64,000 nucleotides of DNA from a phage: the sequence record NC_135732.1; one strand, written 5' to 3'. This document shows positions 1 to 39,888 of the stretch, piece after piece. Within the stretch, counting starts at the first letter, position 1. The number at the start of each line of letters is the position of its first letter. The notes beneath the pieces were generated by a model. It worked only from the letters and a program-made list of their open reading frames with translations. It searched no databases and was not told the DNA's origin. The translations under genes were made by a program, and so were the position numbers.

Positions 1-157
1 AGGTGACACAACAGAGTTCCACTCGGCGATGATTCCCGCATTCATACTGTCAAGATTGTGATCATACTGAGATCTGTGTTTTTGACATGAATCAAACTCC
101 ATGACCCGCTGGTGGAGAAAGTGTGTGTCGCTTGTTACAAAGTATTTCATACATTCC

Positions 158-568
158 TCATTTAAGTTTAATGCAGTTTTTAAGCTGGCGTTCCATACGA
201 TCCACAACCTTGTCTGGAACATCATGAATGCTTTTATTACCGTGGCGGTTTTCAACCACGATCACGGTATAACTATACCCATGACTGATTGCCATGTCAA
301 CATATTCCTGCACATGTTTTTCTTTTGTAAACGTATTACTTACCACGATACGGTCGTATCCCATACGCATCATATCTTCTACGTTATCTTTGCACCATTT
401 TGCTGCGAGTGTTACTTTACTTGCATCCCAGTTGTAATTGCCGTCATCGTCATACCAGAACATGTCGTTCTCAAAATGTGGATACAGACCCTCTAAAGAT
501 AGCGCATTTGCCAGTGTTGATTTGCCAGACCCTGGTAGACCACGCACGATATATAGCATTTTAGACAT
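158..568 (-). CDS. P-loop kinase, polynucleotide-kinase-like (kinase domain only)
   Basis: Walker A GLPGSGKST near N-terminus; track ORF 158..625 trimmed to ATG at 568 preceded by GGAGGG. Confidence 0.55.
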   Translation of the reverse strand: MSKMLYIVRGLPGSGKSTLANALSLEGLYPHFENDMFWYDDDGNYNWDASKVTLAAKWCKDNVEDMMRMGYDRIVVSNTFTKEKHVQEYVDMAISHGYSYTVIVVENRHGNKSIHDVPDKVVDRMERQLKNCIKLK

Positions 569-689
569 AGTGACCCTCCGTTTTAATTTCAACGGTAGTA
601 TACCTAACTGTTTTGTTAATTTCAAGTGTTGACACTAGGTTATTTGTGTGGCAGGATAGACTGACAAAATGACAAATGAGGAACGTATA

Positions 690-1604
690 ATGAAGTATTT
701 TAATGCAGACGACCTGGTTGACAAAGGTCTTGTAACCAGTAGGTATTACCCAGATCTCGGGTTAAAGATCTATAAATATGCTAGAAAAGTATTTTACAAC
801 AATTTATGGCATTTGTCCCCTCGTTTACTGGAGTGCCGAGGCATTGTTGTAGGTAATGAAGGAAATGTTGTGGCATGGCCCTTCACAAAAGTGTTTAACT
901 TGGGAGAAAACTCCACCAACCTGCCTGACAATAAGCTTGTGACTGCGGTAGAGAAAAAGAACGGATTCCTTGGTGTGGTATCATCTCATAAAGGTGACCT
1001 ATTGTTCTCAACAACCGGGTCTCTTGATTCTCCATATTGTAACCTTGCAAAGGAAACCATCCAAGAGCAATGTGGTAATTTAGATCTTATCAAGAAGGTT
1101 ATGGGCAATGAAAACATGACATTCATGTTTGAAATTTGTCACCCTTCAGATCCGCATATTGTTCAAGAAGACCATGGCGCATATTTGATAGGTTGCAGAT
1201 ATAATGATTCTGGAATAATGCTACCAGAAGCAGCTTTAGATGGGATTGCCAAATACCTTGGTGCAAAACGTCCTCACACTGTGCGTGAAATCCCGTTCAG
1301 CTATGCAAAAGAATTAGCCGCAGAAACAAGGGGCGAAGGGTATATGATCCGTAAGCCTTACTACCCTTATGACCTGCAGCTGAAGATCAAGTCTCCATAC
1401 TACCTGGCACGGAAGGCCGTAATGAGGGGTAAAGCTTGGAAGATTTGGGATGATGATATCTTTAAACGTGTTGACGAAGAGTTTTACGGCATGGTAAACT
1501 TCATTCGTAACAATTACACAGAAGATGTGTGGAACTGCCTCCTGGAGCAGGAACGCCGTGAGATACTTGATTACTATTTCCACAACGAGAACTATATGCA
1601 ATGA
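690..1604 (+). CDS. RNA ligase, T4 RnlA-like (Rnl1 family)
   Basis: LECRGI, KVFNLGEN and EKKNGF (KxxG nucleotidyltransferase lysine) match T4 RNA ligase 1 as recalled; ATG 690 has GAGGAA RBS, alternative ATG 669. Confidence 0.7.
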   Translation: MKYFNADDLVDKGLVTSRYYPDLGLKIYKYARKVFYNNLWHLSPRLLECRGIVVGNEGNVVAWPFTKVFNLGENSTNLPDNKLVTAVEKKNGFLGVVSSHKGDLLFSTTGSLDSPYCNLAKETIQEQCGNLDLIKKVMGNENMTFMFEICHPSDPHIVQEDHGAYLIGCRYNDSGIMLPEAALDGIAKYLGAKRPHTVREIPFSYAKELAAETRGEGYMIRKPYYPYDLQLKIKSPYYLARKAVMRGKAWKIWDDDIFKRVDEEFYGMVNFIRNNYTEDVWNCLLEQERREILDYYFHNENYMQ

Positions 1605-1951
1605 AGAAGTTGATTGTGTGGCTGGATGACTTGAGAGATCCGTCAAATTATGGGCTCCCAGACGCTATTTGGCTAAAGAATTCCTCCGAGTTTATAGATT
1701 TTATTAACGATAGGGGAAAGCTCTACAGACGCGTTTCTGAGTGGCACATGGACAACGACCTTGGAGAGTTGTTCGAAGGGTACGATTGCCTATCTATGTT
1801 GGAGGAAAAATTTGTATTTGGTAAGCCCCCTGTAGTTGACAACGTGAAGATTTTCGTGCATACTTCTAACCCATCAGCGGCTCGTAAATTCATGCTTGCA
1901 GCTGACTCGTTTAAAAAGTTTGGAATAGAGATTAAACAAAACATCTACTGA
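1601..1951 (+). CDS. hypothetical protein
   Basis: ATG overlaps ligase stop (ATGA coupling); 116 aa. Confidence 0.5.
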   Translation: MKKLIVWLDDLRDPSNYGLPDAIWLKNSSEFIDFINDRGKLYRRVSEWHMDNDLGELFEGYDCLSMLEEKFVFGKPPVVDNVKIFVHTSNPSAARKFMLAADSFKKFGIEIKQNIY

Positions 1952-1959
1952 GGACACTT

Positions 1960-2721
1960 ATGCGACGACTGATTATTATCTCCGGTGCTGGTTTGAGCGC
2001 TGAATCTGGTATTCCCACTTTCCGATCTGGTAGCACTGCAATGTGGGAGAATTTCAGCATCGATGAGGTGTGCAACATCCACACCTTTGCCAAGAACTAC
2101 TACAAGGTGCATGACTTTTACAATGCACGTCGTGTAGCTCTAGGCGGTGTTGAGCCTAACCTTGCACATCTTCGGATCGCTGAGTGGTATTCCCGCTGGT
2201 CTGGTCGTGTGATCAACCTTACCACCAATGTAGATGATTTGCTGGAGCGTGCTGGTGTAAAACATGAAGATATTTTACATGTTCACGGGTATTTGCCAGA
2301 AATAGTCTATGAGGACGATGAAGGAAGTGACGTCATTAAGGACATTGGATACTCTGAGGTAGATGCAGGAAAGTATACCTGGGTTAAACCTAATGTGGTG
2401 TTCTTCGGAGAAGTAGCTCCGAAGTATACAGACATGTATGACCTGTTGACTTCTCTTACAAGCAATGATATGGTTATCCTTGTAGGGTGTTCCAACACAG
2501 TTATCAATTTTAACTGGGAGCTATTCCCTGCCTGCAATAAGGGCACCAAACTGCTGATCGTTAACAAATACGACTCACAGCATCTAGAGGAGAATGGCAT
2601 TTCACGTAGTGATATTTACCAGTACGAGGATCGCGGCATCCCGGTTTGGTTTAACGGGGCGGTTGACGCTTTCTCTGATAAAACATTCATTGAGACCGTA
2701 GAAAACTTTATGGAACTTTAA
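1960..2721 (+). CDS. Sir2-family NAD-dependent deacylase / NADase
   Basis: N-terminal GAGLSAESGIPTFR Sir2 signature; GAGGA RBS. Confidence 0.8.
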   Translation: MRRLIIISGAGLSAESGIPTFRSGSTAMWENFSIDEVCNIHTFAKNYYKVHDFYNARRVALGGVEPNLAHLRIAEWYSRWSGRVINLTTNVDDLLERAGVKHEDILHVHGYLPEIVYEDDEGSDVIKDIGYSEVDAGKYTWVKPNVVFFGEVAPKYTDMYDLLTSLTSNDMVILVGCSNTVINFNWELFPACNKGTKLLIVNKYDSQHLEENGISRSDIYQYEDRGIPVWFNGAVDAFSDKTFIETVENFMEL

Positions 2722-2734
2722 AAGGAGACCTTTA

Positions 2735-3448
2735 ATGCTGAATACTAAACTGATCGACAACCTGGAAAAACTGTCTCAGCCTGAAAACTATCTTTGGTCT
2801 GCCAACTGGGTGGAAAACTGGAACCGTGTGGCAGCTAAAGTGAAAAAATCATACACACCATTCGAATTACAGCTTAGCTTCATTGAGGAAGAGTTCAATG
2901 AGGTTTTGGAAGAGCTGGAGAAAGGTGATGGTGGAGATCACCTGCTAAAAGAGGCCTGCGATCTTCACGTTGTCACAAGTTATGCCGCTTATCTTGTTAA
3001 TGATAATCACGAAAAGTGGTCAAACCTGTTTGATAATCCACGAGGTCTTAAGTTCAAGATCGGTGAGTTCTATGATACACTGATCGCTGCGAAAAACACA
3101 TCCAAGCAAAGAGCGTCAGCTTACCGCTTAGCGGAGTTGTCAACAGCTTTGCTGTTCCAGCTTCGCGGCGATGTGTGTGGGATGATGCGGAAGGTTCTCA
3201 AATCCAATGACAGCAAGTTTGCACGGATCAACCATCTACGATATTCTCACGGTGCCAGTGCAGATATGTCTACTGAATTGCTCATAGAGTTAGAGATTGA
3301 AGATCTTGAGCGTCGTTTTGGTGGTCGCTACGAAGGTTTCGTTGCTAAAGAGGAGTTCTACAACGGTAATAAAGTTATTATATTCCTTGACAGTAAAGGT
3401 AAGATTATGAAGCCTTCGAGCTTCAAGGATGTAACAGAGTATATTTAA
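2735..3448 (+). CDS. putative MazG-like nucleotide pyrophosphohydrolase
   Basis: EEEFNEVLEELEK ... KEACDLH acidic helix pattern resembling all-alpha NTP pyrophosphatases; AAGGAGA RBS. Confidence 0.4.
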   Translation: MLNTKLIDNLEKLSQPENYLWSANWVENWNRVAAKVKKSYTPFELQLSFIEEEFNEVLEELEKGDGGDHLLKEACDLHVVTSYAAYLVNDNHEKWSNLFDNPRGLKFKIGEFYDTLIAAKNTSKQRASAYRLAELSTALLFQLRGDVCGMMRKVLKSNDSKFARINHLRYSHGASADMSTELLIELEIEDLERRFGGRYEGFVAKEEFYNGNKVIIFLDSKGKIMKPSSFKDVTEYI

Positions 3449-3454
3449 CAACAT

Positions 3455-3476
3455 AGCCGGGATTACCCGGCTTTAC
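3455..3476 (+). terminator. rho-independent terminator
   Basis: AGCCGGG-ATTA-CCCGGCT hairpin followed by T-rich tract. Confidence 0.55.
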
Positions 3477-3510
3477 TTATTATGGAAAGTATGCAGTGAG
3501 GTAGTTAGTT

Positions 3511-3819
3511 ATGTACAAGCATTCCAGAGATCTTGAAAAAGATGCTGTGTTTGGCGACCAGATGAAGGAGCTGATCAAACTTATAGGTAGAATGGAAGAT
3601 AAGTTTGACACTAAAATCTACATCGATAGCAAGATCTTCAACCACAAAATATGGACAAATGTGTGTGTTGGGCTACATGGTGATAAAGATATTGTAAATT
3701 TGGTTGTAATAAAGTTCATAGTGTGGCAGAATAGGACTATACGTTATTCCGATCCACACTTACTTGTTTATCCTATAAAAGACCTACTACAGAAGGAGGA
3801 CTGCAATGCCGTTATTTAA
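3511..3819 (+). CDS. hypothetical protein
   Basis: ORF with GAGG RBS. Confidence 0.5.
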   Translation: MYKHSRDLEKDAVFGDQMKELIKLIGRMEDKFDTKIYIDSKIFNHKIWTNVCVGLHGDKDIVNLVVIKFIVWQNRTIRYSDPHLLVYPIKDLLQKEDCNAVI

Positions 3820-4075
3820 TCTTGCTAAACCTGTAGAAGCACACCAGTTTGATGGAAGCTCTTCATCAGTATCTGATCTGCAACGGTGGATTGATACAGG
3901 TGTGTTTACATCGTCACCTGTTCGGACCAGAGATATTCGTCGCATGTGTGAGCTTGTTGAGCCGTTTGGCAACTTGGTTTTGTACCAGGGAGATTGGTTA
4001 GTTGACTTTATGGGAGACTGGTTGGTAATGAGTAAAGAAGAGATGTTTAAAATTTTTAAGGAAGAGGCCGAGTAA
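3806..4075 (+). CDS. hypothetical protein
   Basis: AAGGAGG RBS before ATG. Confidence 0.55.
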   Translation: MPLFNLAKPVEAHQFDGSSSSVSDLQRWIDTGVFTSSPVRTRDIRRMCELVEPFGNLVLYQGDWLVDFMGDWLVMSKEEMFKIFKEEAE

Positions 4076-5358
4076 TGCATCAAATCAAAACAACACTGTA
4101 CGCACTGAACAAAGATGGCAGCTACCAACAGTGGAAAGTATTCACTGATGGCGAAAAGGTTATCGTAGAGTTTGGCAAGCTTGACGGTAAATTGCAGTAC
4201 AAAGAGACGGTATGTACACCTAAAAACGTAGGTCGTGCCAACGAGACTACAGCTGAGCAACAGGCCGAGCTTGAGGCTATCAGCAAGTGGGAAAAACAAG
4301 TCCGTCTGGGGTATGTTGAAAACATGGAAGATTGCGAGCAGGGTGTTGATCTTTTACCTATGCTGGTGCATGACTACCTGAAGCGTGGCAAGGCACTTAA
4401 ATTACCTTGCTGGATCTTGCGTAAGTTAGATGGCCTTCGTCTGCTTGTTGTTTTCCAAAATGGTGAGCCTAAATTTATTTCCCGTGGTAATAAGTCCTAC
4501 CCTATTCAAGGAAAGCTTTTAGAGCAACTTCGTTCTTTCCATTCTACCACTGGGATTAAACAACTTGATGGGGAACTATACATTCATGGTCTTCCTTTGC
4601 AGAAAATAGTGTCTCTTGCTAAACGGTGGCGCACACAGGAAGAGATTCAGGCCGAGATCGATAAAGACTATGAGGCAGATAAAAAACGCCGTCATGCAGC
4701 AATTAAGGCAGGCTTATCAACATACAAAAACTTCAACAAGGTAGATATTCCTGTCGATGTTGAGCCTGTTCGTGATGATTTGCGTTACGGTGGATACTGT
4801 AGCTACGATCTGGAGTATCACATTTTTGATATTCCTAGCGACAAGGTGTGGTGGGATCCAGAAACAGAGTCTGGACGCTGCAAGGATCTTATGGATGCAG
4901 AGGATACCGTTACCACTCTGATGCTTGATCATATCAAGGTTGTTGACGCAGAGCTTGCGTACACAGTTGATCATTGCGAAGAATCTGTTGGTATATTCAT
5001 GTCCGAAGGATATGAAGGTACTATCATGCGTAATTTCTGCGGTAAATATGAGTATGGTCAGCGAACATCTGAAGCATTGAAATGGAAAAAGTTCAACGAC
5101 GCAGAGGTGAAAGTTATTGACGTTGAGAAAGATAAGAATGATGAAGGTGTTCTTATCTGTGTTGACAAGGAAGGTGTTGTTGTTAAAATGAAGATGAAAG
5201 GCACGCACGAGGAGCGTAGCTATGACAGAATGCAGGAAATGATCGGCAAGTTTGTCACCTTCAAATATCAAGCAAGGACAGAAGACAACAACTACCAATT
5301 CCCTGTCGGTATCTGCGTCCGAAATGTTAACCCAGACACTTGGGAGGTGCTTGAATGA
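4075..5358 (+). CDS. ATP-dependent DNA ligase
   Basis: Motif I KLDGLR (adenylation lysine), 427 aa; ATG overlaps upstream stop. Confidence 0.85.
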   Translation: MHQIKTTLYALNKDGSYQQWKVFTDGEKVIVEFGKLDGKLQYKETVCTPKNVGRANETTAEQQAELEAISKWEKQVRLGYVENMEDCEQGVDLLPMLVHDYLKRGKALKLPCWILRKLDGLRLLVVFQNGEPKFISRGNKSYPIQGKLLEQLRSFHSTTGIKQLDGELYIHGLPLQKIVSLAKRWRTQEEIQAEIDKDYEADKKRRHAAIKAGLSTYKNFNKVDIPVDVEPVRDDLRYGGYCSYDLEYHIFDIPSDKVWWDPETESGRCKDLMDAEDTVTTLMLDHIKVVDAELAYTVDHCEESVGIFMSEGYEGTIMRNFCGKYEYGQRTSEALKWKKFNDAEVKVIDVEKDKNDEGVLICVDKEGVVVKMKMKGTHEERSYDRMQEMIGKFVTFKYQARTEDNNYQFPVGICVRNVNPDTWEVLE

Positions 5359-5481
5359 TGTAGGAAGGTTCAGTAGGTAACGGTAGCCAATTGAATGATG
5401 GTTTTCAATCGGCACCTACATAACCACACTGTGTAGTGTTGTTGATCGTGTTAGTTATGAGTAAACTGGAGAGTATGAAAA

Positions 5482-5952
5482 ATGAAACTTGATAAAAATG
5501 TTCAACGAAAAGCTTTCTTGGACATGATCGCATATTCGGAAGGCACAGATAATGGTAGGCAACCCACTAAGGATCGGGGATACGATGTCATAGTTGGTGG
5601 CAAGCTGTTTAGCGATTACAGCAAGCATCCAGGTGTGTACGTTAAGCTAAATGCTAAACTTACCTCCTCCGCTGCTGGTCGTTACCAGGTTTTGGAGAAG
5701 TTTGCTAAACACTACATGGAACAGTTAGGATTGCCAGATTTTGGCCCCGCCAGTCAGGACAAGATTGCGTTGCAACTGATCCGTGAGTGCAAGGCTCTCG
5801 CCGACATTGACGAAGGGCGTATCCACGAGGCTATCCATAAATGCCGTTCCCGCTGGGCTTCGTTACCTGGTGCTGGATATGGTCAGCATGAACAGAAGAT
5901 CGAGAAGTTGATCGAGGTGTTTAAAAAGGCAGGCGGTGTTGTCCTTGATTGA
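5482..5952 (+). CDS. endolysin, lambda R-like lytic transglycosylase
   Basis: Near-colinear with lambda R as recalled: QRKAFLDM, AYSEGTDNGRQ, GYDVIVGG, RWASLPGAGYGQ. Confidence 0.9.
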   Translation: MKLDKNVQRKAFLDMIAYSEGTDNGRQPTKDRGYDVIVGGKLFSDYSKHPGVYVKLNAKLTSSAAGRYQVLEKFAKHYMEQLGLPDFGPASQDKIALQLIRECKALADIDEGRIHEAIHKCRSRWASLPGAGYGQHEQKIEKLIEVFKKAGGVVLD

Positions 5953-6015
5953 TCATTGACATAACCACACGGACGTGGTATTGTTACCTCATAAAATGTT
6001 TAGGAGGGCTTAACC

Positions 6016-6697: not shown

Positions 6698-6980
6698 GAG
6701 ACCTGTAAAAGAGAAATTCGATAAGACAGCTTTTGTATTCGATACACCTCTGGACGACATCATTAGAGGTATGCAATCATTGTATCGGAAGGCTGAATCT
6801 GAGCAGCTGTCGGAATCAGAACTTTACTGGCTCGGTTGGTGGGAGTTAAACCTGCCTAAAGCTGAAAGTTCTTCTCTGAGAACTGTTAAAACGTGCGCCC
6901 AAGAAAACGCTGCACTTGGAATCTACCACAAAAGGAAAAGATCAACAAAAAGCTCTCCAAGAAAGACTAAAAAGTCTTGA
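6690..6980 (+). CDS. hypothetical protein, basic C-terminus
   Basis: ATG 6690 overlaps upstream stop; track start 6687 is TTG. Confidence 0.5.
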   Translation: MAKRPVKEKFDKTAFVFDTPLDDIIRGMQSLYRKAESEQLSESELYWLGWWELNLPKAESSSLRTVKTCAQENAALGIYHKRKRSTKSSPRKTKKS

Positions 6981-7006
6981 CAAAAGTGTTATTAATCTGA
7001 TATTAT
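6977..7006 (+). promoter_or_regulatory. sigma70-like promoter
   Basis: TTGACA, 18-nt spacer, TATTAT. Confidence 0.55.
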
Positions 7007-7039
7007 CGGTCAGATATCTATAAACTAGGAGAACTAGAT

Positions 7040-7348
7040 ATGCTTAAAATTTTTATTGTTGAAGATAAAGATATTGTCCAGTTGTATGCAAACGAGAATC
7101 ATAAAGGTATGATTCTGAAGAAGGCAAGCAACCTTCATGAAAACACAATTCAACCTGGCGATGTAATTAAGATCTGTGGTTATATGATACCAGACTCCTT
7201 GATGAAAATAACCCACCACTGGGGGTCTAATCCGTTCCTTTTTGAAAAGTATTGGGATGTTGAGTCACTTATTGCAGAGAGTGATGATGCATTCCATTAC
7301 AGCATCCAACCATCTTGCAGAATAACTAACAGGAGGGTCTTTGAGTAG
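7040..7348 (+). CDS. hypothetical protein
   Basis: AGGAGAA RBS. Confidence 0.55.
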   Translation: MLKIFIVEDKDIVQLYANENHKGMILKKASNLHENTIQPGDVIKICGYMIPDSLMKITHHWGSNPFLFEKYWDVESLIAESDDAFHYSIQPSCRITNRRVFE

Positions 7349-8480
7349 AGAATATCCACTTATTGAGTCCATAGATTGTCTGGCTGATCTTCTTGAACCT
7401 GACGCTATAGTTTATTATGACTTCGATCAGGTTGCATATCAAGCTGCAGCAAGTTGTGAAAAAAGGACAATTGAGGTAACACACAAAGCCTCCGGACGTA
7501 AGAAGATGTTTAAAACACGAACAGAGTTCTGGGGGCGGCAGAAGAACACAGTTGGTGGTTGGTTAAAAGCTGAGAATACCAACCGTGAAGCTGCATGTAA
7601 AAAGGCTGGCAAGGAGTTTATTCCGTGGACACGAGAAGATTTCGATGTCTTGGATATCCAAACCCCTGATCCTGTAGAGAACTGCTTGCACACAATTAAG
7701 TGTAAAGCGAATGCAGTCCTTAATTATCTCGGTATTCCGGAAGATCGGTGCGTGGGGGTACTTGGAGGCACAGGTAATTTCAGACTAGATCTTCCCATGC
7801 CGGAAAGATATAAAGCCAACCGTAACAATACTCTTCGACCACTGCTGCTTGGAGATGCAAGACAGTATCTCCAAAAGCAGTATAATGCTCAAGTGATCAA
7901 CGGTATCGAGGCTGACGACTGGTTAGCTATCCAGCAATTTGAAGGTTGGAACCACTACCAAAAAACAGGTAAGTTCAACAAGTTTATTATCTCTATTGAT
8001 AAGGACCAAAGAACACTGCCGGGGCTTGTGTTCGATCCCATGCGAAACGATAAGGGAGATTTTGTAAGGGAAACCCCTATGCTGATCGATAACGGTATGG
8101 GGAACATCTTCATGAAGCCTAATGGAGAGGTTGGTGGTTACGGAATGCTGTTCTTCGGATACCAAATGCTGTGTGGTGACTCTGCCGACAATATCAAGCC
8201 GTATCAAGGACTTATCGGTAAGGGTAAGTTCGGGGATGCCTCAGCATTCTACCTACTGTCTCAGTGCAGCACTCCAAAGGAGATGTGGGTGGCTATTATT
8301 GATCAGTACAAGAAGTGGTTCCCGAAAGGTGTTGTTAAGTATACTGACTTCAATGGTGTTGATCGTAGAATTTCCGTAGGTCAATGGATGAGTATAATTT
8401 TTGACTGTTTGTATATGAAGCGAACATTCAATGATCAAACAAAACTTGTTAACGTTCTCAGAAATGTTGGAGCAATTTGA
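7341..8480 (+). CDS. 5'-3' exonuclease / flap endonuclease (FEN family)
   Basis: GIEADDWLA and GDSADNIKPY acidic motifs typical of phage 5' nucleases; TTG start after AGGAGGG. Confidence 0.6.
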   Translation: MSREYPLIESIDCLADLLEPDAIVYYDFDQVAYQAAASCEKRTIEVTHKASGRKKMFKTRTEFWGRQKNTVGGWLKAENTNREAACKKAGKEFIPWTREDFDVLDIQTPDPVENCLHTIKCKANAVLNYLGIPEDRCVGVLGGTGNFRLDLPMPERYKANRNNTLRPLLLGDARQYLQKQYNAQVINGIEADDWLAIQQFEGWNHYQKTGKFNKFIISIDKDQRTLPGLVFDPMRNDKGDFVRETPMLIDNGMGNIFMKPNGEVGGYGMLFFGYQMLCGDSADNIKPYQGLIGKGKFGDASAFYLLSQCSTPKEMWVAIIDQYKKWFPKGVVKYTDFNGVDRRISVGQWMSIIFDCLYMKRTFNDQTKLVNVLRNVGAI

Positions 8481-8812
8481 TGACTAAAAATTCTGTAGAT
8501 AGTGCAATTATGGAAGCTGTTTTTGAGGATGATCATACAACAGGGACACTTAAAACAAAAAATACATTCGTTGTTGCCACAGGTATGTGGCGGTTGTATG
8601 AAGATGACACCATTTCATACATCCTGTACACTGATGATTACGCAGATGACCGTGTATGGTCTGCTGTTTTAAAAGAGGATTGTGAACTGATTGAGGGCGA
8701 GCGGTTATGCATGTTCACCAGTGTGGAAACAGATGTTAAGCTTTGCTCTCTCGTCTTGTTCAAAGATAAGGCTTATGCTCCTGATGAAGGAGAGGAGGAT
8801 GAGGAAGTATGA
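8480..8812 (+). CDS. hypothetical protein
   Basis: ATG 8480 overlaps upstream stop; GGAG RBS. Confidence 0.5.
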   Translation: MTKNSVDSAIMEAVFEDDHTTGTLKTKNTFVVATGMWRLYEDDTISYILYTDDYADDRVWSAVLKEDCELIEGERLCMFTSVETDVKLCSLVLFKDKAYAPDEGEEDEEV

Positions 8813-9438
8813 GAGAGCGTCTATTATCCATAGACCAGTCGTTGACACACACAGCTTGCGTTGTATGGGACGATGGAAAGCCTGTTCATAAGGTTGTGTT
8901 ACGAACTCAAAGCTCATCTGCAAAAGAGAAGAAACCAGGGACGGTTTCTTTTGCAACAGCTGCTGAGCGTATTGACTGGATCTGCAAACAGGTCAGATAT
9001 TATATCCACACGCATGGAGTTGACACCGTGGTTATGGAAGGACTTTCCTTCGGATCTCGCGGGGATGCCACACGTGAACTGGCTGGGTTGTTTTACGGTC
9101 TCGAAGTTATGCTTTGGGATGCTTTAGCTGATTGTGAAAATGACGGCCTGTTTAAGGTTCACACAGTGACACCAACAACTGCCAAAAAGTTTGCTCGTAG
9201 TCATCTTCCTGAAGAACTTGCTTTTGAGGAGAAGAAAAAGCTTGACAAAAAGACAGGTAAAGAGCATACTGTGAAGAAACCTGTTACGATGGATAAAAAG
9301 TTGATGGTTAAGGCCTGCGAAGTATCTGAACCAGGGTTCCTAGATGGGATCAATTTGGTACAAGGTAAGGCCGATCTCGCAGATGCTTATTGGATAGGCA
9401 GGGCGCATCTGGAGGGGTTATCGCAAAGCGTAAAATAA
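8809..9438 (+). CDS. RuvC-like Holliday junction resolvase
   Basis: LSIDQS...VVMEGLSFG...DLADAYWIGRA resembles RuvC catalytic acidic residues; GAGGAGGA RBS. Confidence 0.5.
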   Translation: MRERLLSIDQSLTHTACVVWDDGKPVHKVVLRTQSSSAKEKKPGTVSFATAAERIDWICKQVRYYIHTHGVDTVVMEGLSFGSRGDATRELAGLFYGLEVMLWDALADCENDGLFKVHTVTPTTAKKFARSHLPEELAFEEKKKLDKKTGKEHTVKKPVTMDKKLMVKACEVSEPGFLDGINLVQGKADLADAYWIGRAHLEGLSQSVK

Positions 9439-9995
9439 GAAAGAAAGCTGTCAAAGCCCCCGTTCATAGCGGGTGGCTAAAAGATTCTAAGGACATAGCC
9501 AACTTTCGAAAAGAATTGTCAGAGGAGCAGGATGGTCTTGATCCGATCTTGTGCGAGCCACTTCGTAAGCCTTGTTTAGATCATGATCATCTGACTGGTC
9601 GTTGCAGGGGTGTTTTGTCTCAGTGCACTAATACCTTTGAGGGGTATGTGCTTAAATACTGGATGAAATACTGTAACGAGTATACAGATTGCAGTTTATC
9701 AGAGGCGTTGCGCCGGATGGCTGACTATCTGGAGAAAGACTACAGCGACTTCCCGCTCCACAAAAACTACAGAGATGATATGACAAAGTTCTTGAGGAGA
9801 TGCTCTAAAGCTACGATTATTGCACGAGCAGAATCAGATCTCAATCTTGTCATTAATCCAGAGTGCACCAAGCATGAGGCTATTGAGTCCTACATGCAGG
9901 AGTTTATAAAGAAAACTGAGGAGAGAGATTTCTATGGGGATGAAAAAGGTATTCAATCCTTGCGACTCAGTCCTGATCAGGATGAAATACCGTAA
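9390..9995 (+). CDS. recombination endonuclease VII-like
   Basis: CLDHDHLTGRCRGVLSQCTN matches the endo VII zinc/His motif; TTG start, overlaps upstream gene. Confidence 0.65.
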   Translation: MDRQGASGGVIAKRKIRKKAVKAPVHSGWLKDSKDIANFRKELSEEQDGLDPILCEPLRKPCLDHDHLTGRCRGVLSQCTNTFEGYVLKYWMKYCNEYTDCSLSEALRRMADYLEKDYSDFPLHKNYRDDMTKFLRRCSKATIIARAESDLNLVINPECTKHEAIESYMQEFIKKTEERDFYGDEKGIQSLRLSPDQDEIP

Positions 9996-12464: not shown

Positions 12465-12656
12465 ATGACACTAAAGTTAACAATTCCAGACAGCTTTTCA
12501 GAAGACTTTATCCCAGAAATGATGGGTAAGATGCGATCATTGCTTGATCAGATCGAGGAAGCTGTTTGGGAAGACGATGCTGTAGTGGCTAACGAGCTGG
12601 TAGATAAGTGTAAAAGTATTATTGATGCAGTTGAAGAATACCACGGAGGTTTTTGA
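12465..12656 (+). CDS. hypothetical small protein
   Basis: ATG after GGAGAA; track start was TTG. Confidence 0.45.
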   Translation: MTLKLTIPDSFSEDFIPEMMGKMRSLLDQIEEAVWEDDAVVANELVDKCKSIIDAVEEYHGGF

Positions 12657-13270
12657 TGGATATTATTGTTCTTAACGCCCCACCCAGCAGTGGTAAGGAT
12701 CACATTGCAGATCTCTTGTTGGAAGCTATTCCTAACTCACACCACCGTGAGGTTAAGGAGATGCTCTTCAGTGTGGCAATTAAGGCAGCTGGTGTAACTC
12801 CTCAACTCTGGAATGCACTTTATGACCGCCACTACAAAGAAGAGCCTTGCCCTTTCTTAATGATAGACGGCAAGCATGTTTCTCCGCGAGAATGGATGAT
12901 CCATTGTAGTGAAAATCTGATTAAACCTATCTTTGGTGAAGATGCTTTCGGTAAAGCCGCAGTCGCATCTTTGAAGAAAGATTTCCCTAAAGGTAAAGGG
13001 GTTGTTGTTTACTCTGATGGTGGATTCAAAGAGGAGCTGGCATGCCTTAGCGAGTACGCGTACAGCACAGGTGGAGATCTGTTGTTGTTCCGTATTCACC
13101 GTGTCGGATATGACTGGGGAAATGATTCCAGAACCTATCTAAGTCTGGAAAAGAACGGAATAAAAGGAATTGAGTTCGATGTTGTAAACCCTGAAGGTGC
13201 ACCTTGGGAATGTGCATCGGAGATTGTGTGCAAGTATATTGATGCTAAAGAGGCCCAAGAAGAATGTTAA
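12656..13270 (+). CDS. putative deoxynucleoside monophosphate kinase
   Basis: N-terminal P-loop-like LNAPPSSGKD; GGAGG RBS; context of nucleotide-metabolism genes. Confidence 0.45.
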   Translation: MDIIVLNAPPSSGKDHIADLLLEAIPNSHHREVKEMLFSVAIKAAGVTPQLWNALYDRHYKEEPCPFLMIDGKHVSPREWMIHCSENLIKPIFGEDAFGKAAVASLKKDFPKGKGVVVYSDGGFKEELACLSEYAYSTGGDLLLFRIHRVGYDWGNDSRTYLSLEKNGIKGIEFDVVNPEGAPWECASEIVCKYIDAKEAQEEC

Positions 13271-13857
13271 TCGGTATTGATGTAGATTTGACACTGGTAG
13301 ATTCAGGAACAGCATGGTGGGAGTGGTTGGAGCGTTTATATGGTCCAGCCAGTAAGACAGTCACTAAACCTTCTAATGGGTTAATGTATTACGATCTGTC
13401 AAAGTATTGGCCTGATCGCCCCAAAGAAAACATCATAGGGCCTTTTGATTTCTGGAGTGACCCGTTCCTCTACGACTTTCTTAAGCCTGAAGAGGGGGCT
13501 ATTGAGGTTATGAAAGATTTGGTGGCTCGTGGTCACAAGCTTGCATTTATCTCGGTATGCAAGAAAGGTCACCTTGCATCTAAATCAAGGTTCTTAAAGC
13601 GTTGGACTAGTGATTTTATGGATCTGGACGATCACACCCAGGGTCACGGCTTCTACGCCACGCATTTCAAGGGAAATGTGGCTGTAGATGTTATAATTGA
13701 CGACAGGCATGAATACCTGAACCAATTCGCTTCACGCCCTGAAGTTATTAAAATCCTAAAAGATACGCCTTATGAGCAATTTGAGGAGTTAAAGGTCAGT
13801 GTTGACTATACCGCTAATAGCTGGTATAAAATAGGAAAGTTTTTAGAAGGTATTTGA
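13264..13857 (+). CDS. HAD-superfamily phosphatase, putative 5'-deoxyribonucleotidase
   Basis: N-terminal GIDVDLTL (DxDxT HAD motif I). Confidence 0.5.
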   Translation: MLIGIDVDLTLVDSGTAWWEWLERLYGPASKTVTKPSNGLMYYDLSKYWPDRPKENIIGPFDFWSDPFLYDFLKPEEGAIEVMKDLVARGHKLAFISVCKKGHLASKSRFLKRWTSDFMDLDDHTQGHGFYATHFKGNVAVDVIIDDRHEYLNQFASRPEVIKILKDTPYEQFEELKVSVDYTANSWYKIGKFLEGI

Positions 13858-13858
13858 A

Positions 13859-14059
13859 ATGGGCAGATGTTCTAAAGGTGGCGATCCTGTAGTCAGATAC
13901 GGTGACTGGCTAGAGGTGTATGATCTGGGAGGTAAGCTGGTGTATGCCTCCAGGATCACCCAAGACATGTGCTCCGATATGTTCAACAGATACCTTGCAT
14001 TTAAGGCCAACATAAACCCAGACGAAATTTCCAAAATTAAAACAAGGAGAGCTAAATAA
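13859..14059 (+). CDS. hypothetical protein
   Basis: AGAAGG RBS. Confidence 0.45.
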   Translation: MGRCSKGGDPVVRYGDWLEVYDLGGKLVYASRITQDMCSDMFNRYLAFKANINPDEISKIKTRRAK

Positions 14060-15042
14060 TGCTAAAACTGTGCACTGCAAAGATCATTGCTGACAGCATT
14101 TCCGAGAAAGGTAAGCGCATCACAACTTTTGAGCTAGAGTATCCTCGAATTATTCACTCAGAGCTTATGACGCACCGAGTGTTCAGCCGAAACGCCATGT
14201 CTTCCCGTGCAGTGCCTGTCGGAAAGATGCTGCAACAGATTGTGGAGAATCCGGCAATGCCAGTTCGCTTCGGTGTAAATAAGCGAGGAATGGAAGATGG
14301 TGGGGAACACGATCAAAAGATCCGTGTAGAGTACACTGATATGGAGCTAACTCCGGAAGAGTTTTGGAAAGAAGCTGCAAAAAACGCCGCTTGGCATGCA
14401 GAGAAGTTTGCCCTTGCTGGTTACCATAAGCAAGTATGTAACCGCTTAGTGGAGCCTTTTCAGCGCATGAAAACAGTTGTAACAAGCACCGAGTGGAATA
14501 ATTTTTTCCACCTCCGTTGCTGGCACGATGCGGATCCTACGATTCAGATGTTAGCTAATTGTATGTGGGAGGCTCTTGTGAATAGCACTCCTGAAATCCT
14601 TAAACCGGGTCAATGGCACACTCCATATGTAGAGCACGTTTATTTGGACGGGGAGTTTAACTACGCTGTACGTGACACAGAAGGAAAGCTCTGCATTCTC
14701 GATACTAAAGAAGCTCTGTCTATCAGTGCTAGTTGCTGTGCACAAGTATCTTATCGAAATATTGACAGCACGTTTGAAAAGGCAGACAGTGTGGCTAAAA
14801 AATTGATTGGTGGGGATCGTATTCATGCAAGCCCTTACGAGCACCAGGCAACACCTATGGATCACGATAACGCAATGGAACGTTTAAACTACTACCTGTC
14901 TTCATGTGAAATCACACAAGACATCAGTACTTGGCAGGAAGGTGTAACCCATCAAGACCGTGATGGTAAATTCTGGTCTGCCAACTTTTGTGGGTGGGTT
15001 CAGCACAGACAACTGCTTAATAACCACTTCGTGAAAGGTTAA
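14059..15042 (+). CDS. putative flavin-dependent thymidylate synthase (ThyX-like)
   Basis: THRVFSRNAMSSR resembles ThyX RHRx7S signature (first Arg replaced by Thr). Confidence 0.4.
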   Translation: MLKLCTAKIIADSISEKGKRITTFELEYPRIIHSELMTHRVFSRNAMSSRAVPVGKMLQQIVENPAMPVRFGVNKRGMEDGGEHDQKIRVEYTDMELTPEEFWKEAAKNAAWHAEKFALAGYHKQVCNRLVEPFQRMKTVVTSTEWNNFFHLRCWHDADPTIQMLANCMWEALVNSTPEILKPGQWHTPYVEHVYLDGEFNYAVRDTEGKLCILDTKEALSISASCCAQVSYRNIDSTFEKADSVAKKLIGGDRIHASPYEHQATPMDHDNAMERLNYYLSSCEITQDISTWQEGVTHQDRDGKFWSANFCGWVQHRQLLNNHFVKG

Positions 15043-35971: not shown

Positions 35972-36126
35972 TAGTATAGTGACTAACAAGAGGTGAGGAA
36001 TGACTGATTTTACTGAAGCTTTAATGATGGCCTTGTCTGTTTTAGCGCTATCGGTGTGTTTTGGGGCGTTATTCACATCTCTGGTTAAAGTTTTACATAC
36101 AGTATTATTACCCAAGGAGCGCAGTA

Positions 36127-36378
36127 ATGACGAAGATTGACTTGAATGCTGGCGATCATGTTGTTGTCAAATGCATTGGAGATTATCTTGGATTCACAAT
36201 CGGCAATACTTACGAGGCGGTAGTGGCGAAGGTTTACTATGATAAAGTCCTCAGTCTTGTATTTGACTGCGATGATGATGGGGATGACCGATACGTCTGT
36301 GAGGTGCTGGCACGAGACGATAGTGAAGACCAGAAATTCCTGGTTATTGAACTGAACGGTATTTTTGTAGAACGTTAA
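36127..36378 (+). CDS. hypothetical small protein
   Basis: AAGGAG RBS then ATG 36127; track ORF started upstream. Confidence 0.45.
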   Translation: MTKIDLNAGDHVVVKCIGDYLGFTIGNTYEAVVAKVYYDKVLSLVFDCDDDGDDRYVCEVLARDDSEDQKFLVIELNGIFVER

Positions 36379-36406
36379 TTTAAAACAACATAAGGAGACT
36401 CTTACT

Positions 36407-36712
36407 ATGGCTAAATCTAAAGTTGAACTGTTCACCTCTCTTCCTTCTGACACTGCAGAGCGTGATCGCCTTCGCAAAACAATCGAAGAACTGGTAGAAC
36501 TCCAACTTCAGATTAAAGATCTGAAAGATGCCATTAAGGATATCATTCTCGTTGAGAAGCAGGATCACCTGTATTCTCCTAAATTCATCAAATCTCTGGT
36601 GGCTACCGAGTTCGATATTCGCTATGAGGCTGAAAAACGTCGCGCTAAAATCGAAGAAGAGGTTGAGCACATGTCTGAGGCAGACATTCTGTTCAAACGC
36701 TCTGTAGAATAA
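36407..36712 (+). CDS. hypothetical protein (charged, helical)
   Basis: AAGGAGA RBS. Confidence 0.5.
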   Translation: MAKSKVELFTSLPSDTAERDRLRKTIEELVELQLQIKDLKDAIKDIILVEKQDHLYSPKFIKSLVATEFDIRYEAEKRRAKIEEEVEHMSEADILFKRSVE

Positions 36713-36718
36713 TGACAA

Positions 36719-36746
36719 AGAGGGGGGCTTGGGCCCCTCTTTTTTC
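36719..36746 (+). terminator. rho-independent terminator
   Basis: GAGGGGGG-CTTG-GGCCCCTC hairpin then TTTTTTC. Confidence 0.7.
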
Positions 36747-36767
36747 TATCTATGAAGGAGATTTGAG

Positions 36768-37094
36768 ATGGGTATACCGATTACTGTAAAAGAGCTAAAT
36801 GAACGTGATGCAGGTGGTCTATGGCCTGCACGAAAAATCCGCTGCGTCTATATGAAAGAGAATCTTGAACATCTTGATCAACAGATAAAGGTCGGCGATA
36901 TTTTCGAGGTCTTCTATTCCAATCGTCGCAACTGGGAAACCATTCAACCTTCCGGTTTTGTTCTTGCTAAGCTCGACACTGGAGAAGTGATTATCCCAGG
37001 GTTGGATATTGTCTTCGAAATTATCCAGGAGTGGGATCCGGATAAGATTAGATACGAAGAGTTATTCGGTAAAGGTATTATCAAACCTGTGTGA
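36768..37094 (+). CDS. hypothetical protein
   Basis: GAAGGAGA RBS. Confidence 0.5.
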   Translation: MGIPITVKELNERDAGGLWPARKIRCVYMKENLEHLDQQIKVGDIFEVFYSNRRNWETIQPSGFVLAKLDTGEVIIPGLDIVFEIIQEWDPDKIRYEELFGKGIIKPV

Positions 37095-37402
37095 GGTGGA
37101 TTATGTCTACAAAGGCGGCTAAATACTCTTACATGCCATCAACCTCTGCAGAGGTAGACTTTAGTTTCGATGTGTTTCCACTGTTTGAGGTGGTTCTGGC
37201 ATACCCAACAATACTATCTACTCCTGAATCACTTGTGCCTGTTAAATTGCAGAACGCTATGCATTCTATGCACTACAACAATAAATGTAGGCACAGATGG
37301 TGTCAGGACGAGGAAAAAGATTTAGATAGTTTGAGAGATTTTGACAGTCACCTTTTGACACCTTTCAGCTACTCCAACCTTGATAAGCCCTCATGGGTAT
37401 AG
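37091..37402 (+). CDS. hypothetical protein
   Basis: GAGGTGGA RBS. Confidence 0.45.
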   Translation: MRWIMSTKAAKYSYMPSTSAEVDFSFDVFPLFEVVLAYPTILSTPESLVPVKLQNAMHSMHYNNKCRHRWCQDEEKDLDSLRDFDSHLLTPFSYSNLDKPSWV

Positions 37403-37427
37403 CAAAATATCAAATTTAAGACACCTA

Positions 37428-37455
37428 GGACGCTCTGTGGCGTCCTTTTCTTTAT
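37428..37455 (+). terminator. rho-independent terminator
   Basis: AGGACGC-TCTGTG-GCGTCCT hairpin then TTTCTTT. Confidence 0.7.
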
Positions 37456-37615
37456 CTGGTGCACGATTGCATACCTTGGACAGATAATCTCATTACAGAG
37501 CGTTTAAGAGCTTCCTACAAACAAATCTCTCTTTCGAGCGTAGCGAGAACGCACGTCCGTTTTGACCCAAATCACCATACGCTCGGATTTTAACCAAACC
37601 CTCGCGGCGTTTCTG

Positions 37616-37644
37616 TTGACACATTACCGCTCTCGTGATAGTAT
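37616..37644 (+). promoter_or_regulatory. sigma70-like promoter
   Basis: TTGACA, 17-nt spacer, TAGTAT. Confidence 0.5.
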
Positions 37645-37664
37645 CCACACATCGTTTGGAGAAT

Positions 37665-37766
37665 ATGGAATACACAATGAGAACATTGTCTGAAGTTTTA
37701 GTGGTGATCCTGATGATCATTACATCCATAGCGGCTGTTGCCGGAATACTCACAGGTGGAACATGA
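37665..37766 (+). CDS. small hydrophobic peptide (33 aa)
   Basis: GGAG RBS; MEYTMRTLSEVLVVILMIITSIAAVAGILTGGT; stop overlaps next ATG; below track cut-off. Confidence 0.35.
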   Translation: MEYTMRTLSEVLVVILMIITSIAAVAGILTGGT

Positions 37767-37978
37767 TCAACACACATGCATCTGAAGAGACATCCGAAGG
37801 AGTGACGACCATATGTAACCTGGCTGAGCCAGTGAAAGAGGAAAACTTCGATTCTGAAGATTCTCCATCTTCGCTCCAGGTAGACCCTGAGGCTGATGAC
37901 CTGACGTGGGAGGACATCGTAGACATCTGGTTCTCTATTATGCCTGAGCACGAAGAGTTCAGAGGTGGTAGACTATGA
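37763..37978 (+). CDS. small acidic protein
   Basis: GGTGGA RBS; ATG overlapping upstream stop. Confidence 0.45.
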   Translation: MINTHASEETSEGVTTICNLAEPVKEENFDSEDSPSSLQVDPEADDLTWEDIVDIWFSIMPEHEEFRGGRL

Positions 37979-38098
37979 AGCACCGAGCCCACACAGGTTC
38001 CTCATGCTAAAGCATGACCTGAAGAGGCAAACGTGCATAATTCCTGTGCATTGAAACGTATAAACCCTGTTCACACTCTCATTCACAGAGGAGATTTC

Positions 38099-38314
38099 AT
38101 GAAGATAGAAATATTTGGTGGGGCTGACAACACTCGTGGCCTGATTTACCTTGAATTCGATGAATCATACCTGCCAGAGGTGTTAAATATAGACTCTGTT
38201 GCTGAGGCTTTGGGAGTAAACCCTAAAGAACTCCACTCTTGTGCTGAGATCGATGGTTGGGAAGAGACCATGAACATTGATTTCAGTGAAGTAGAGGATG
38301 AACCGCTGGACTGA
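38099..38314 (+). CDS. small acidic protein (MKIEI family-like)
   Basis: AGGAGA RBS then ATG 38099; track ORF started upstream. Confidence 0.5.
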   Translation: MKIEIFGGADNTRGLIYLEFDESYLPEVLNIDSVAEALGVNPKELHSCAEIDGWEETMNIDFSEVEDEPLD

Positions 38315-38443
38315 CACACAATTAGCTGCCCGGCTAAAGTGCTGGAAGCGCACCTATAACACATATTTCAACTAAATTTCCCACCACCACAATCACTTAC
38401 CTACCACACGTGACTGTTTGCTTGTTTAGTGAGCAGTCATGCC

Positions 38444-38471
38444 TTGACATTCTTGCCTATCCTGATAAAAT
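38444..38471 (+). promoter_or_regulatory. sigma70-like promoter firing into non-coding region
   Basis: TTGACA, 16-nt spacer, TAAAAT; no credible ORF downstream. Confidence 0.4.
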
Positions 38472-39791: not shown

Positions 39792-39875
39792 TTACACACC
39801 TATTAGTTTACACACTGGATTGTTTACATTCCTGATTGTTCACATGCTAACCATTTACATGATTGACTGTTTACA
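39792..39875. repeat. iteron-like array of TTTACA(C/T)A motifs
   Basis: Six copies at about 15-16 bp spacing (39792, 39807, 39823, 39838 variant, 39854, 39870). Confidence 0.6.
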
Positions 39876-39888
39876 CACCGATAATCAG

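Follow-up and report, generated by a model that had tools for sequence, protein, structure and literature searches.

The left end of the window, by which we mean the whole analysed stretch of 64,000 nucleotides (nt) of phage DNA (record NC_135732.1), carries a gene cluster (positions 158 to 3448, with one further gene running off the left edge) that is probably a cluster of Vequintavirus phages for repairing breaks in RNA, most likely in tRNA. We are fairly confident that three of its predicted products, a calcineurin-like metallophosphoesterase, an ATP-dependent RNA ligase of the Rnl1 (T4 RnlA) family and a polynucleotide kinase-like (Pnk-like) P-loop kinase, repair broken RNA; judged by their sequences they would constitute a complete kit for end healing and sealing, two parts of which are homologous to T4 proteins, in an architecture like that of bacterial Pnkp. 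The cluster further encodes a cREC protein, a sirtuin (Sir2) and a MazG-like protein. It is genuine, but has already been described in silico, since Iyer, Burroughs, Anand, de Souza and Aravind (Viruses 2022, PMC9503650 section 3.7.3) reported a sirtuin-centred phage RNA-repair neighbourhood (type 2) with Escherichia phage V5 and Proteus phage Mydo as prototypes, comprising a T4-like tRNA ligase, cREC, a nucleotide kinase, a sirtuin, a MazG-superfamily pyrophosphatase and a calcineurin-like phosphoesterase, and predicted that the sirtuin acts like Tpt1. In the BASEL annotation of the fully annotated MaxBurger genome (99.1% identical) the kinase, phosphoesterase, ligase and sirtuin are also already labelled, and our literature search found no experiments on sirtuins of phages, on cREC or on RNA repair in Vequintavirus. 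What is added here is (i) the phosphoesterase, which a sequence-only reading of the window had missed, (ii) the loss of the sirtuin zinc site with retention of the YxxR motif, (iii) the dimeric-dUTPase-like shape of the MazG-like protein, (iv) the core trio, and (v) the discordant phyletic spread of cREC, sirtuin and ligase.

A megablast search with positions 1 to 6000 against phage genomes matched 128 records, the close matches all being Vequintavirus (rV5-like) phages, to which the window belongs, and the best match being Escherichia phage ime with 99.9% identity across the full 6 kb. Because at least 90% identity over the region is kept in more than 100 sequenced phages, the open reading frames (ORFs) of the cluster represent real genes and not chance ORFs. 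The five ORFs named by the sequence-only reading were recovered from the ORF listing of positions 1 to 6000 at 158-625 (minus strand) and at 669-1604, 1601-1951, 1960-2721 and 2735-3448 (plus strand), with two starts differing. The kinase most likely begins at 568 (MSKM..., with GGAGGG upstream) and not at 625, and the ligase most likely at 690 (MKYFN..., with GAGGAA upstream) in a frame open from 669, the ligase start being in agreement with the N-termini of homologues and with GenBank records.

The genes are organized in two divergent compact units. The leftward unit consists of the kinase gene (158..568, minus strand; 136 amino acids, aa) and, after a gap of 7 nt, the phosphoesterase gene, of whose 184 codons the first 50 lie in the window (150..1, minus strand) and the remainder to its left. 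In the rightward unit the stop codon of the ligase gene (690..1604; 304 aa) overlaps the start codon of the cREC gene (1601..1951; 116 aa) as ATGA, and the sirtuin gene (1960..2721; 253 aa) and the gene for the MazG-like protein (2735..3448; 237 aa) follow after gaps of 8 nt and 13 nt, respectively. Seven nucleotides past the stop codon of the latter, a GC-rich hairpin AGCCGGGATTACCCGGCT followed by the T-rich TTACTTATTA (3455..3472, plus strand) is likely the terminator of the rightward unit. Inspection of the divergent intergenic region (569..689) revealed a sigma70-like site on the minus strand (625..597) and a TTGACA on the plus strand (629-634), both of which are only matches to a consensus; neither a convincing sigma-70 promoter of the rightward unit nor a convincing plus-strand -10 element could be located.

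The ligase matched PF09511 (RNA_lig_T4_1; 1.1e-14, 55.3 bits against a cut-off of 28.3) and phrog_562 (2.8e-66), and was aligned by hhalign with residues 47-265 (of 374) of T4 RnlA at a probability of 95.4% (E = 1.7e-8), the T4 PseT and RnlA sequences used for hhalign having been taken from the T4 genome. Its KxNG, FEI, EGY and KIKS motifs align with KEDG, FEF, EGY and KIKS of the T4 enzyme, and K96, N98, G99, E155, E223, G224, K239 and K241 (311-aa numbering) are invariant in eight homologues. With the Pfam match and all nucleotidyltransferase motifs present, the designation as an RnlA-like ligase in the sequence-only reading was upheld, and by homology the enzyme would seal 3'-OH/5'-P RNA ends in an ATP-dependent manner. 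Because it missed the cut-off of the strict equivalog TIGR02308 (38.7 versus 242 bits), it is to be regarded as a distant member of the Rnl1 family. The C-terminal domain of T4 RnlA, about 120 aa long, is implicated in tRNA specificity; it is without a counterpart here, because only about 65 residues follow motif V as compared to about 130 in T4 RnlA. A profile of the eight ligase homologues had no match in the PDB, and the link to T4 RnlA emerged only by hhalign against the T4 protein.

The kinase matched the Pfam family AAA_33 (1e-10, 42.5 bits against a cut-off of 27), phrog_2071 (1.8e-58) and phrog_505 'polynucleotide kinase' (4.8e-10). Using a profile of eight homologues, its top PDB match was the RNA-repair kinase Pnkp1 (4xrp, 2.6e-4), with T4 Pnk (0.027) and the kinase domain of C. 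thermocellum Pnkp (0.035) at lower ranks amid gluconokinases and other P-loop proteins, and hhalign aligned it with the T4 PseT kinase domain (residues 1-147) at a probability of 95.5% (E = 1.3e-8). These matches bear out its earlier description as a polynucleotide kinase-like P-loop protein. Searches of the PDB with the single kinase and ligase sequences returned noise only. The catalytic residues of T4 Pnk are D35, R38 and R126. Among the homologues of the phage kinase the P-loop GxxGxGKS is invariant, as are D36, which aligns with the Asp of 'NRDDF' in Pnkp1 and is placed otherwise in the T4 hhalign alignment, and R109, which lies in the lid region in an uncertain register. Kinase and ligase, which had been proposed to form a T4-like RNA-repair pair, thus both appear from their sequences to be distant but genuine members of the T4 families (hhalign probability about 95% and E about 1e-8 each).

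At 136 aa the protein consists of the kinase domain only, and the observation that no phosphatase domain is fused to it stands. That the kinase is without a phosphatase partner is not supported, since the metallophosphoesterase gene that starts 7 nt downstream and runs off the window edge provides an adjacent phosphatase-type partner. The N-terminal part encoded in the window translates as MKYFVTSDTHFLHQ..., and the full protein (184 aa; MN850576 9110-9664) matched Metallophos_2 (1.2e-6, 29 bits against a cut-off of 27) and Metallophos (3.9e-6, 27.9 bits against a cut-off of 21.5). Its translation contains the metal-binding motifs SDTHF (DxH), HLGDIA (GD), RGNHD (GNHD), MSHY and GHAHG (GHxH), and the protein is predicted to heal RNA 3' ends (2',3'-cyclic phosphate, 3'-phosphate or 2'-phosphate).

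The HAD phosphatase at 13264, to which the sequence-only reading had pointed as a separate phosphatase, was ruled out as the partner of the kinase. It is an NT5C-family 5'-deoxynucleotidase (13264-13857, 4e-6) next to ThyX (14059-15042, 3e-9), a setting suggestive of nucleotide metabolism. Both genes lie in a nucleotide-metabolism block (12653-15042) that also includes a 205-aa ORF (12653-13270), for which no Pfam or NCBIfam match was found and which is labelled 'putative P-loop NTPase' in the BASEL annotation of MaxBurger.

For the comparison of gene neighbourhoods 60 viral loci with relatives of cREC and 50 with relatives of the sirtuin were used, and homologues of the window proteins were mapped onto them by jackhmmer. 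The locus scans relied on short peptide patterns and were not exhaustive, so that absence from a contig is weak evidence; ORF calling in the loci was mechanical, and synteny among related phages may mirror shared ancestry rather than shared function. In rV5-like phages the order is phosphoesterase and kinase leftward, and ligase, cREC, Sir2, MazG-like gene, orf102, orf89 and DNA ligase rightward. PVP-SE1-like phages carry on one strand orf102, phosphoesterase, ligase, cREC, kinase, Sir2, DNA ligase, orf89 and MazG-like gene, and some relatives have phosphoesterase, ligase, kinase and Sir2 with no cREC detected within 7 kb. Two contigs (97 and 150 kb) hold a group of cREC, phosphoesterase, ligase and kinase from which Sir2 is about 33 kb distant, and two others (149 and 153 kb) hold cREC, phosphoesterase, DNA ligase and the MazG-like gene, with no RNA ligase or kinase detected within 7 kb and Sir2 about 31-32 kb off. 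In the Pseudomonas phage MAG1 (Pakpunavirus) the ligase is flanked by a phosphoesterase (34% identical, annotated as such) and a kinase (43% identical), and in Vibrio phage VPT02 the ligase and a kinase homologue (43% identical) are adjacent, beside a gene annotated 'serine/threonine protein phosphatase'. The phosphoesterase, the Rnl1 ligase and the Pnk-like kinase are hence a portable, always-adjacent core that extends to distant Pseudomonas and Vibrio phages with little else in common with the window phage, and cREC and the sirtuin are lineage-specific additions of enterobacterial phages.

The sirtuin matched PF02146 (5.5e-27, 95.3 bits against a cut-off of 24), which confirms the Sir2 family assignment, and its top PDB match was CobB from E. 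coli (1s5p, 4.1e-21), followed by SIRT5. The sequence-only reading had singled out two features of this protein. The catalytic His is kept, together with the Asn and Asp, given that the GAGxSxxSG..FR motif, N90, D92 and H109-G110 are invariant in an alignment of 30 diverse members of the clade, and the four zinc-binding cysteines are all lost, there being no pair of cysteines in the interval from H109 to K143 and eight residues being deleted at the second CxxC. In sirtuin structures the zinc module forms one wall of the acyl-peptide cleft. Both CxxC pairs are kept in jumbo-phage relatives (loci L111 and L112), so the zinc-less sirtuin represents a derived clade. The segment Y54-N-A-R57 aligns with FYNARR of CobB (class III YxxR), Y54 being invariant and R57 or R58 conserved; Y54 and R57 occupy the positions of CobB Tyr92 and Arg95, which are reportedly important for desuccinylation (PMC6636992). 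The protein is accordingly taken to be an active NAD+-consuming enzyme with a predicted remodelled substrate site in which the anion-binding Tyr/Arg pair is kept. In the top 120 homologue clusters all informative source names were those of phages (two clusters were labelled just E. coli or Salmonella 'hypothetical protein') and the long contigs with homologues were mostly about 100-155 kb; by this sampling of sequences the sirtuin is a member of a large clade that is so far known from phages only.

The suggested tie of the sirtuin to defence-type NADases fell away. No PADLOC family was matched at E<=0.01, and the candidate 'defence-type Sir2 NADase' (ThsA, DSR, SIR2-HerA, pAgo-associated) was dropped since no PADLOC Sir2 model matched and the protein is unlike defence-type Sir2. 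Nor did PADLOC give a match for cREC, the ligase, the phosphoesterase or the MazG-like protein, and for the kinase it gave only weak generic P-loop hits. Being a sirtuin by sequence, the protein does not appear to be a member of the Tpt1/KptA family either.

The sirtuin recurs beside phosphate-end enzymes of three unrelated folds, i.e., the metallophosphoesterase and cREC (here), HAD_SAK_2 (T5) and an Rnl1 ligase (jumbo phage). T5 and T5-like phages encode a 58%-identical Sir2 (T5.102), with none of this ligase detected in the 7-kb flanks examined; in T5 it is encoded in one operon with a HAD_SAK_2 'Swiss-army-knife RNA repair' phosphatase (4e-20), a combination seen again in a T5-like contig (1.3e-20). 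In a 607-kb jumbo-phage contig (L111) an Rnl1 ligase (2.7e-28) is encoded about 1.2 kb upstream of Sir2. This recurrence is compatible with the published Tpt1-like conjecture. The specific proposal that the zinc-less sirtuin is an NAD+-dependent nucleic-acid or nucleotide enzyme, an analogue of Tpt1 in which the Tyr/Arg pair binds phosphate, and that cREC is a receiver-fold phosphoesterase, probably with an aspartyl-phosphate intermediate, we nevertheless regard as unlikely. If true, it would mean that enterobacterial phages own a fungal/plant-style 2'-phosphate branch of RNA repair built from unrelated folds. As further observations around the sirtuin gene, it is directly preceded in L111 (Sir2 at 6986-7708) by the Rnl1 ligase and an arginase-family gene, and directly followed in the 279-kb L112 (Sir2 at 7001-7711) by a nucleoside 2-deoxyribosyltransferase-like gene; in the L110 lineage Sir2 (6824-7750) is followed by a 141-aa ORF and then a DNA ligase gene (8241-9626).

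A competing explanation, less probable than RNA repair by the whole cluster and still to be taken seriously, is that only the phosphoesterase, kinase and ligase repair RNA, and that the sirtuin is a CobB-type lysine deacylase (e.g., a desuccinylase) that reprograms host or phage proteins and is found here by inherited gene order. The best matches to CobB and SIRT5 and the retention of all NAD-binding and catalytic residues and of YxxR speak for such an activity, as does the distribution of the sirtuin, which is about three times as widespread as cREC, is carried by hundreds of T5-like phages that lack this ligase and is unlinked from the cluster in the four contigs of 97-153 kb. It has to be set against the loss of the zinc module and eight residues, though jumbo-phage relatives keep the module, against scores far under the CobB equivalog cut-offs (NCBIfam NF040867, 102.7 versus 320 bits; NF001753, 122.4 versus 243 bits), and against the fact that independent lineages place the sirtuin beside phosphate-end enzymes.

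The 116-aa ORF between ligase and sirtuin, earlier described as lacking a recognisable motif, in fact matched PF20274 (cREC_REC, cyclic-phosphate processing receiver domain; E = 8.3e-15, 55.7 bits against a cut-off of 27), a model present in all 53 full-length members of the 56 homologous proteins found. It has a receiver (CheY-like) fold with a conserved acidic pocket, Thr/Ser and Lys, and no histidine kinase is listed in the MaxBurger genome annotation. The name cREC was given in 2021 by the group of Iyer et al. and is now that of a Pfam family, for no member of which an activity has been assayed according to PMC9503650; the same authors place cREC among processors of ADP-ribose (ADPr) derivatives. 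In the window phage and its relatives cREC has RNA-repair neighbours, and processing of cyclic or terminal phosphates is predicted for it. To examine the published association of cREC with RNA ligases, 142 neighbours of its more distant relatives at 29 viral loci were scanned with Pfam; among the 25 commonest of the 51 families matched, with crude ORF calling, were HAD_SAK_2 (2), NADAR (2), NAD-dependent DNA ligase (2) and NAD synthase (1). The 10 cellular loci (one a 354-bp fragment) yielded 10 neighbours from 7 loci and among these no match to an RNA-repair family, a metallophosphoesterase homologue being found nearby only at L120, a Clostridia metagenome-assembled genome in which cREC and the metallophosphoesterase are one gene apart. 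A metallophosphoesterase also lies about 300-500 nt downstream of cREC in four viral contigs of 97-153 kb (L010, L012-L014), and in the loci sampled the link of cREC to a phosphoesterase is more recurrent than that to a ligase.

The trio in MAG1 (L128) and the set of ligase, kinase and annotated phosphatase in VPT02 (L129) are followed by genes annotated as ribose-phosphate pyrophosphokinase (Prs-like) and nicotinamide phosphoribosyltransferase (NAMPT-like), annotations typical of the NAD+-reconstitution counter-defence genes of NARP1. This suggests, by annotation only, that RNA-repair and NAD+ loci are recurrently linked in phages, and it makes a counter-defence flavour of the cluster plausible. 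It could be taken further to mean that cREC, the sirtuin and the MazG-like protein act not on RNA ends but on small NAD-derived or nucleotide immune signals and their by-products (ADP-ribose phosphates, cyclic ADP-ribose variants or cyclic oligonucleotides being candidate substrates), as a counter-defence unit beside RNA repair. The Pakpunavirus and Vipunavirus gene order would fit this, as would the NADAR, NAD synthase and NAD-dependent DNA ligase genes near distant cREC relatives, the listing of cREC among ADPr-derivative processors (PMC9503650) and the use by phages of a homologue of Poa1p, the phosphatase of the yeast tRNA-splicing by-product pathway, for NAD+ counter-defence (bioRxiv 10.64898/2026.01.28.702374). 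We hold it to be improbable, however: the consumption of NAD+ by a sirtuin is hard to square with a role against NAD+ depletion; apart from the weak kinase hits, nothing in the cluster matched a PADLOC family or any anti-defence family known; the likeness to NARP1 is one of annotation; and few of the loci (about 5 of 29) have NAD-related genes near cREC.

The MazG-like ORF had no Pfam family match and matched phrog_671 'nucleotide pyrophosphohydrolase' (5.7e-22). Its product has a four-helix-bundle core with an EExxE...D metal-binding motif and a small C-terminal beta-hairpin extension, and nine syntenic homologues share the EExxE, D76 and SNxxK motifs. When 39 family members were compared with Pfam at E<=1, PRA-PH (HisE) was matched by all of them (best 3e-7) and MazG by 8, and of the 26 families found, the 25 commonest did not include dUTPase_2. 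A structure prediction was needed because the family profile gave a single marginal PDB match (HisE, E = 0.1); the top structural neighbours of the model are dimeric dUTPases. Hence the protein is, as modelled, an all-alpha NTP pyrophosphohydrolase, and of the earlier MazG-like call the MazG/HisE superfamily stood, the finer family being unmatched and the shape nearest to dimeric dUTPases. No dUTPase is listed in the MaxBurger genome, in which ThyX and ribonucleotide reductases are present. A house-cleaning function like that of a dUTPase is no less likely than participation in RNA repair, and the gene may simply serve nucleotide-pool metabolism.

T4 Pnkp acts on DNA and RNA alike. It is conceivable that the block processes and seals DNA ends, with the kinase and phosphoesterase cleaning nicks for the DNA ligase, the MazG-like protein being a dUTPase and RNA ligation a side activity; the accompaniment of the cluster by an ATP-dependent DNA ligase in all relatives, the weak resemblance of the phosphoesterase to PdeM, a ligase-associated DNA-damage phosphoesterase (2.6e-4, well under the cut-off), and the dUTPase-like model in a phage group with ThyX, ribonucleotide reductases and no annotated dUTPase point that way, but in Pseudomonas, Vibrio and enterobacterial phages alike the invariant and immediately adjacent partner within the trio is the Rnl1 RNA ligase, the best structural matches of the kinase include RNA-repair kinases (Pnkp1 and C. 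thermocellum Pnkp) and dUTPase_2 is not among the frequent Pfam families of the MazG-like members, so that we give this explanation little credence.

RNA repair by the cluster as a whole, which we favour, might proceed as follows. A ribonuclease of the host or of a competitor would cleave RNA to leave 2',3'-cyclic phosphate and 5'-OH ends, as assumed by analogy with T4 and PrrC. The calcineurin-like phosphoesterase, possibly with the help of cREC, would open and remove the phosphate at the 3' end, the Pnk-like kinase, by its homology to the T4 and bacterial Pnkp kinases, would phosphorylate the 5'-OH, and the Rnl1-family ligase, with its full set of catalytic motifs, would then seal the nick. 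Hypothetically, and as its most likely function, the sirtuin would transfer ADP-ribose onto a phosphate in a Tpt1-like removal of an RNA 2'-phosphate, as predicted by Iyer et al., and cREC and/or the phosphoesterase could clear the resulting cyclic ADP-ribose phosphate by-product. The MazG-like protein, co-transcribed with the others, probably serves the nucleotide pool as a dUTPase-like enzyme and is not a step of the repair.

Several points weigh against this scheme. Each of its functional steps is deduced from homology and gene context. There is no obvious need for a Tpt1-like step, because phosphoesterase, kinase and ligase already make up a complete heal-and-seal set, and E. coli has its own KptA. 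The sirtuin stands about 31-34 kb from cREC in the four contigs of 97-153 kb, and in two of these (L010 and L014) the MazG-like gene stays by the DNA ligase with no RNA ligase, kinase or Sir2 detected within 7 kb. Among 50,697 phage records the three proteins are unequally spread (Sir2 in 975, cREC in 347 and this ligase in 758). In Salmonella phages 287 records with Sir2 compare with 14 each for cREC and the ligase, and the ligase occurs in phages of Pseudomonas (177) and Streptomyces (127), two genera that are missing from the ten listed as commonest for Sir2 and for cREC. That the sirtuin is common where this ligase is rare and is unlinked in some relatives counts against a strict role in ligation. 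The link of the distant cREC neighbours to NAD or RNA ends is thin, and no RNA ligase family was among the 25 most frequent of the 51 families at the 29 distant viral loci. Finally, Vequintavirinae are still subject to defence by retron Eco2, which cleaves tRNA (PMC12916289).

The genes following the terminator, orf102 (3511-3819; 102 aa), orf89 (3806-4075; 89 aa) and an ATP-dependent DNA ligase gene (4075-5358; PF01068 and PF14743), all on the plus strand, are syntenic companions of uncertain membership. The two small ORFs have no Pfam family and match only phrog_7684 and phrog_14585, PHROGs of unknown function; they accompany the cluster in rearranged order in PVP-SE1-like phages and other relatives and may belong to the module. 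The DNA ligase gene is a constant neighbour, its start abutting the Sir2 stop in PVP-SE1-like phages (L084, Sir2 7001-7777 and DNA ligase 7777-9078). Outside the window, to its left, the phosphoesterase gene is followed downstream by a gene (MN850576 8712-9062; L001 3198-3548) for a small helix-turn-helix (HTH) protein (DUF6945 and HTH_36, just under threshold), which is variously labelled transcriptional regulator or replication initiation protein and is a possible regulator of the leftward unit. A cluster of tRNA genes (MN850576 5448-6171; L001 1-657), including Thr-UGU, Ser-UGA, Tyr-GUA, Arg-UCU and others, lies about 3.4 kb to the left of where the window begins; to one tRNA gene of 99 nt ARAGORN assigns a 4-base anticodon, and the MaxBurger homologue is annotated as a 97-nt tRNA-Lys. 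As the tRNA genes adjoin the repair cluster, the phage may combine replacement and repair of tRNA. Elsewhere in the window, the cumulative GC skew tops out near 37 kb and then drops (about 36000-40000), a course that fits a switch of the predominant coding strand in the second half. Approximately 20 'Campylobacter phage' records (e.g., A140, 140.9 kb) bear the cluster with about 93% protein identity to E. coli Vequintavirus, and their host labels look doubtful.

Defence systems that cut tRNA are widespread (PrrC, RloC, retrons, PARIS and Cas13), and to our knowledge T4 is essentially the sole phage whose RNA-repair countermeasure has been studied experimentally. The present cluster is carried by hundreds of sequenced phages of E. 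coli, Klebsiella and Salmonella, including BASEL phages used as laboratory models, and its components pose testable questions: a portable three-protein heal-and-seal kit, a first enzymatic activity for cREC and possibly a new sirtuin chemistry. The idea of the cluster is already in print, and it is experiment rather than recognition that is missing.

Among known systems, the closest is the type 2 neighbourhood of Iyer et al., of which the window is a member, with the same phage group and gene set and no essential difference. The phage sirtuin has the NAD pocket, catalytic His and YxxR in common with E. coli CobB and human SIRT5, and differs from them by the lost zinc cysteines, the deletion in the zinc module, scores far under the equivalogs and its restriction to phage records. 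The likeness to fungal and plant tRNA splicing, in which Trl1 (cyclic phosphodiesterase, kinase and Rnl1-like ligase) works with the NAD+-dependent 2'-phosphotransferase Tpt1/KptA, is a functional conjecture only, there being no homology between the sirtuin and Tpt1 or between cREC and the 2H phosphodiesterase. With T4 PseT and RnlA, which act against the PrrC anticodon nuclease, the cluster shares a homologous kinase domain, the ligase motifs and the same heal-and-seal logic; in T4, however, a HAD phosphatase is fused to the kinase in place of the separate calcineurin-type metallophosphoesterase, RnlA bears the C-terminal domain that has no counterpart here, and neither cREC nor a sirtuin takes part. 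Bacterial Pnkp (C. thermocellum Pnkp and Capnocytophaga Pnkp1-Rnl-Hen1) likewise combines a kinase, a binuclear metallophosphoesterase and a ligase, but as fused domains with a ligase of another family and a Hen1 methyltransferase partner, whereas in the Vequintavirus cluster the three proteins are small and separate, the ligase is of the Rnl1 type and Hen1 is missing.

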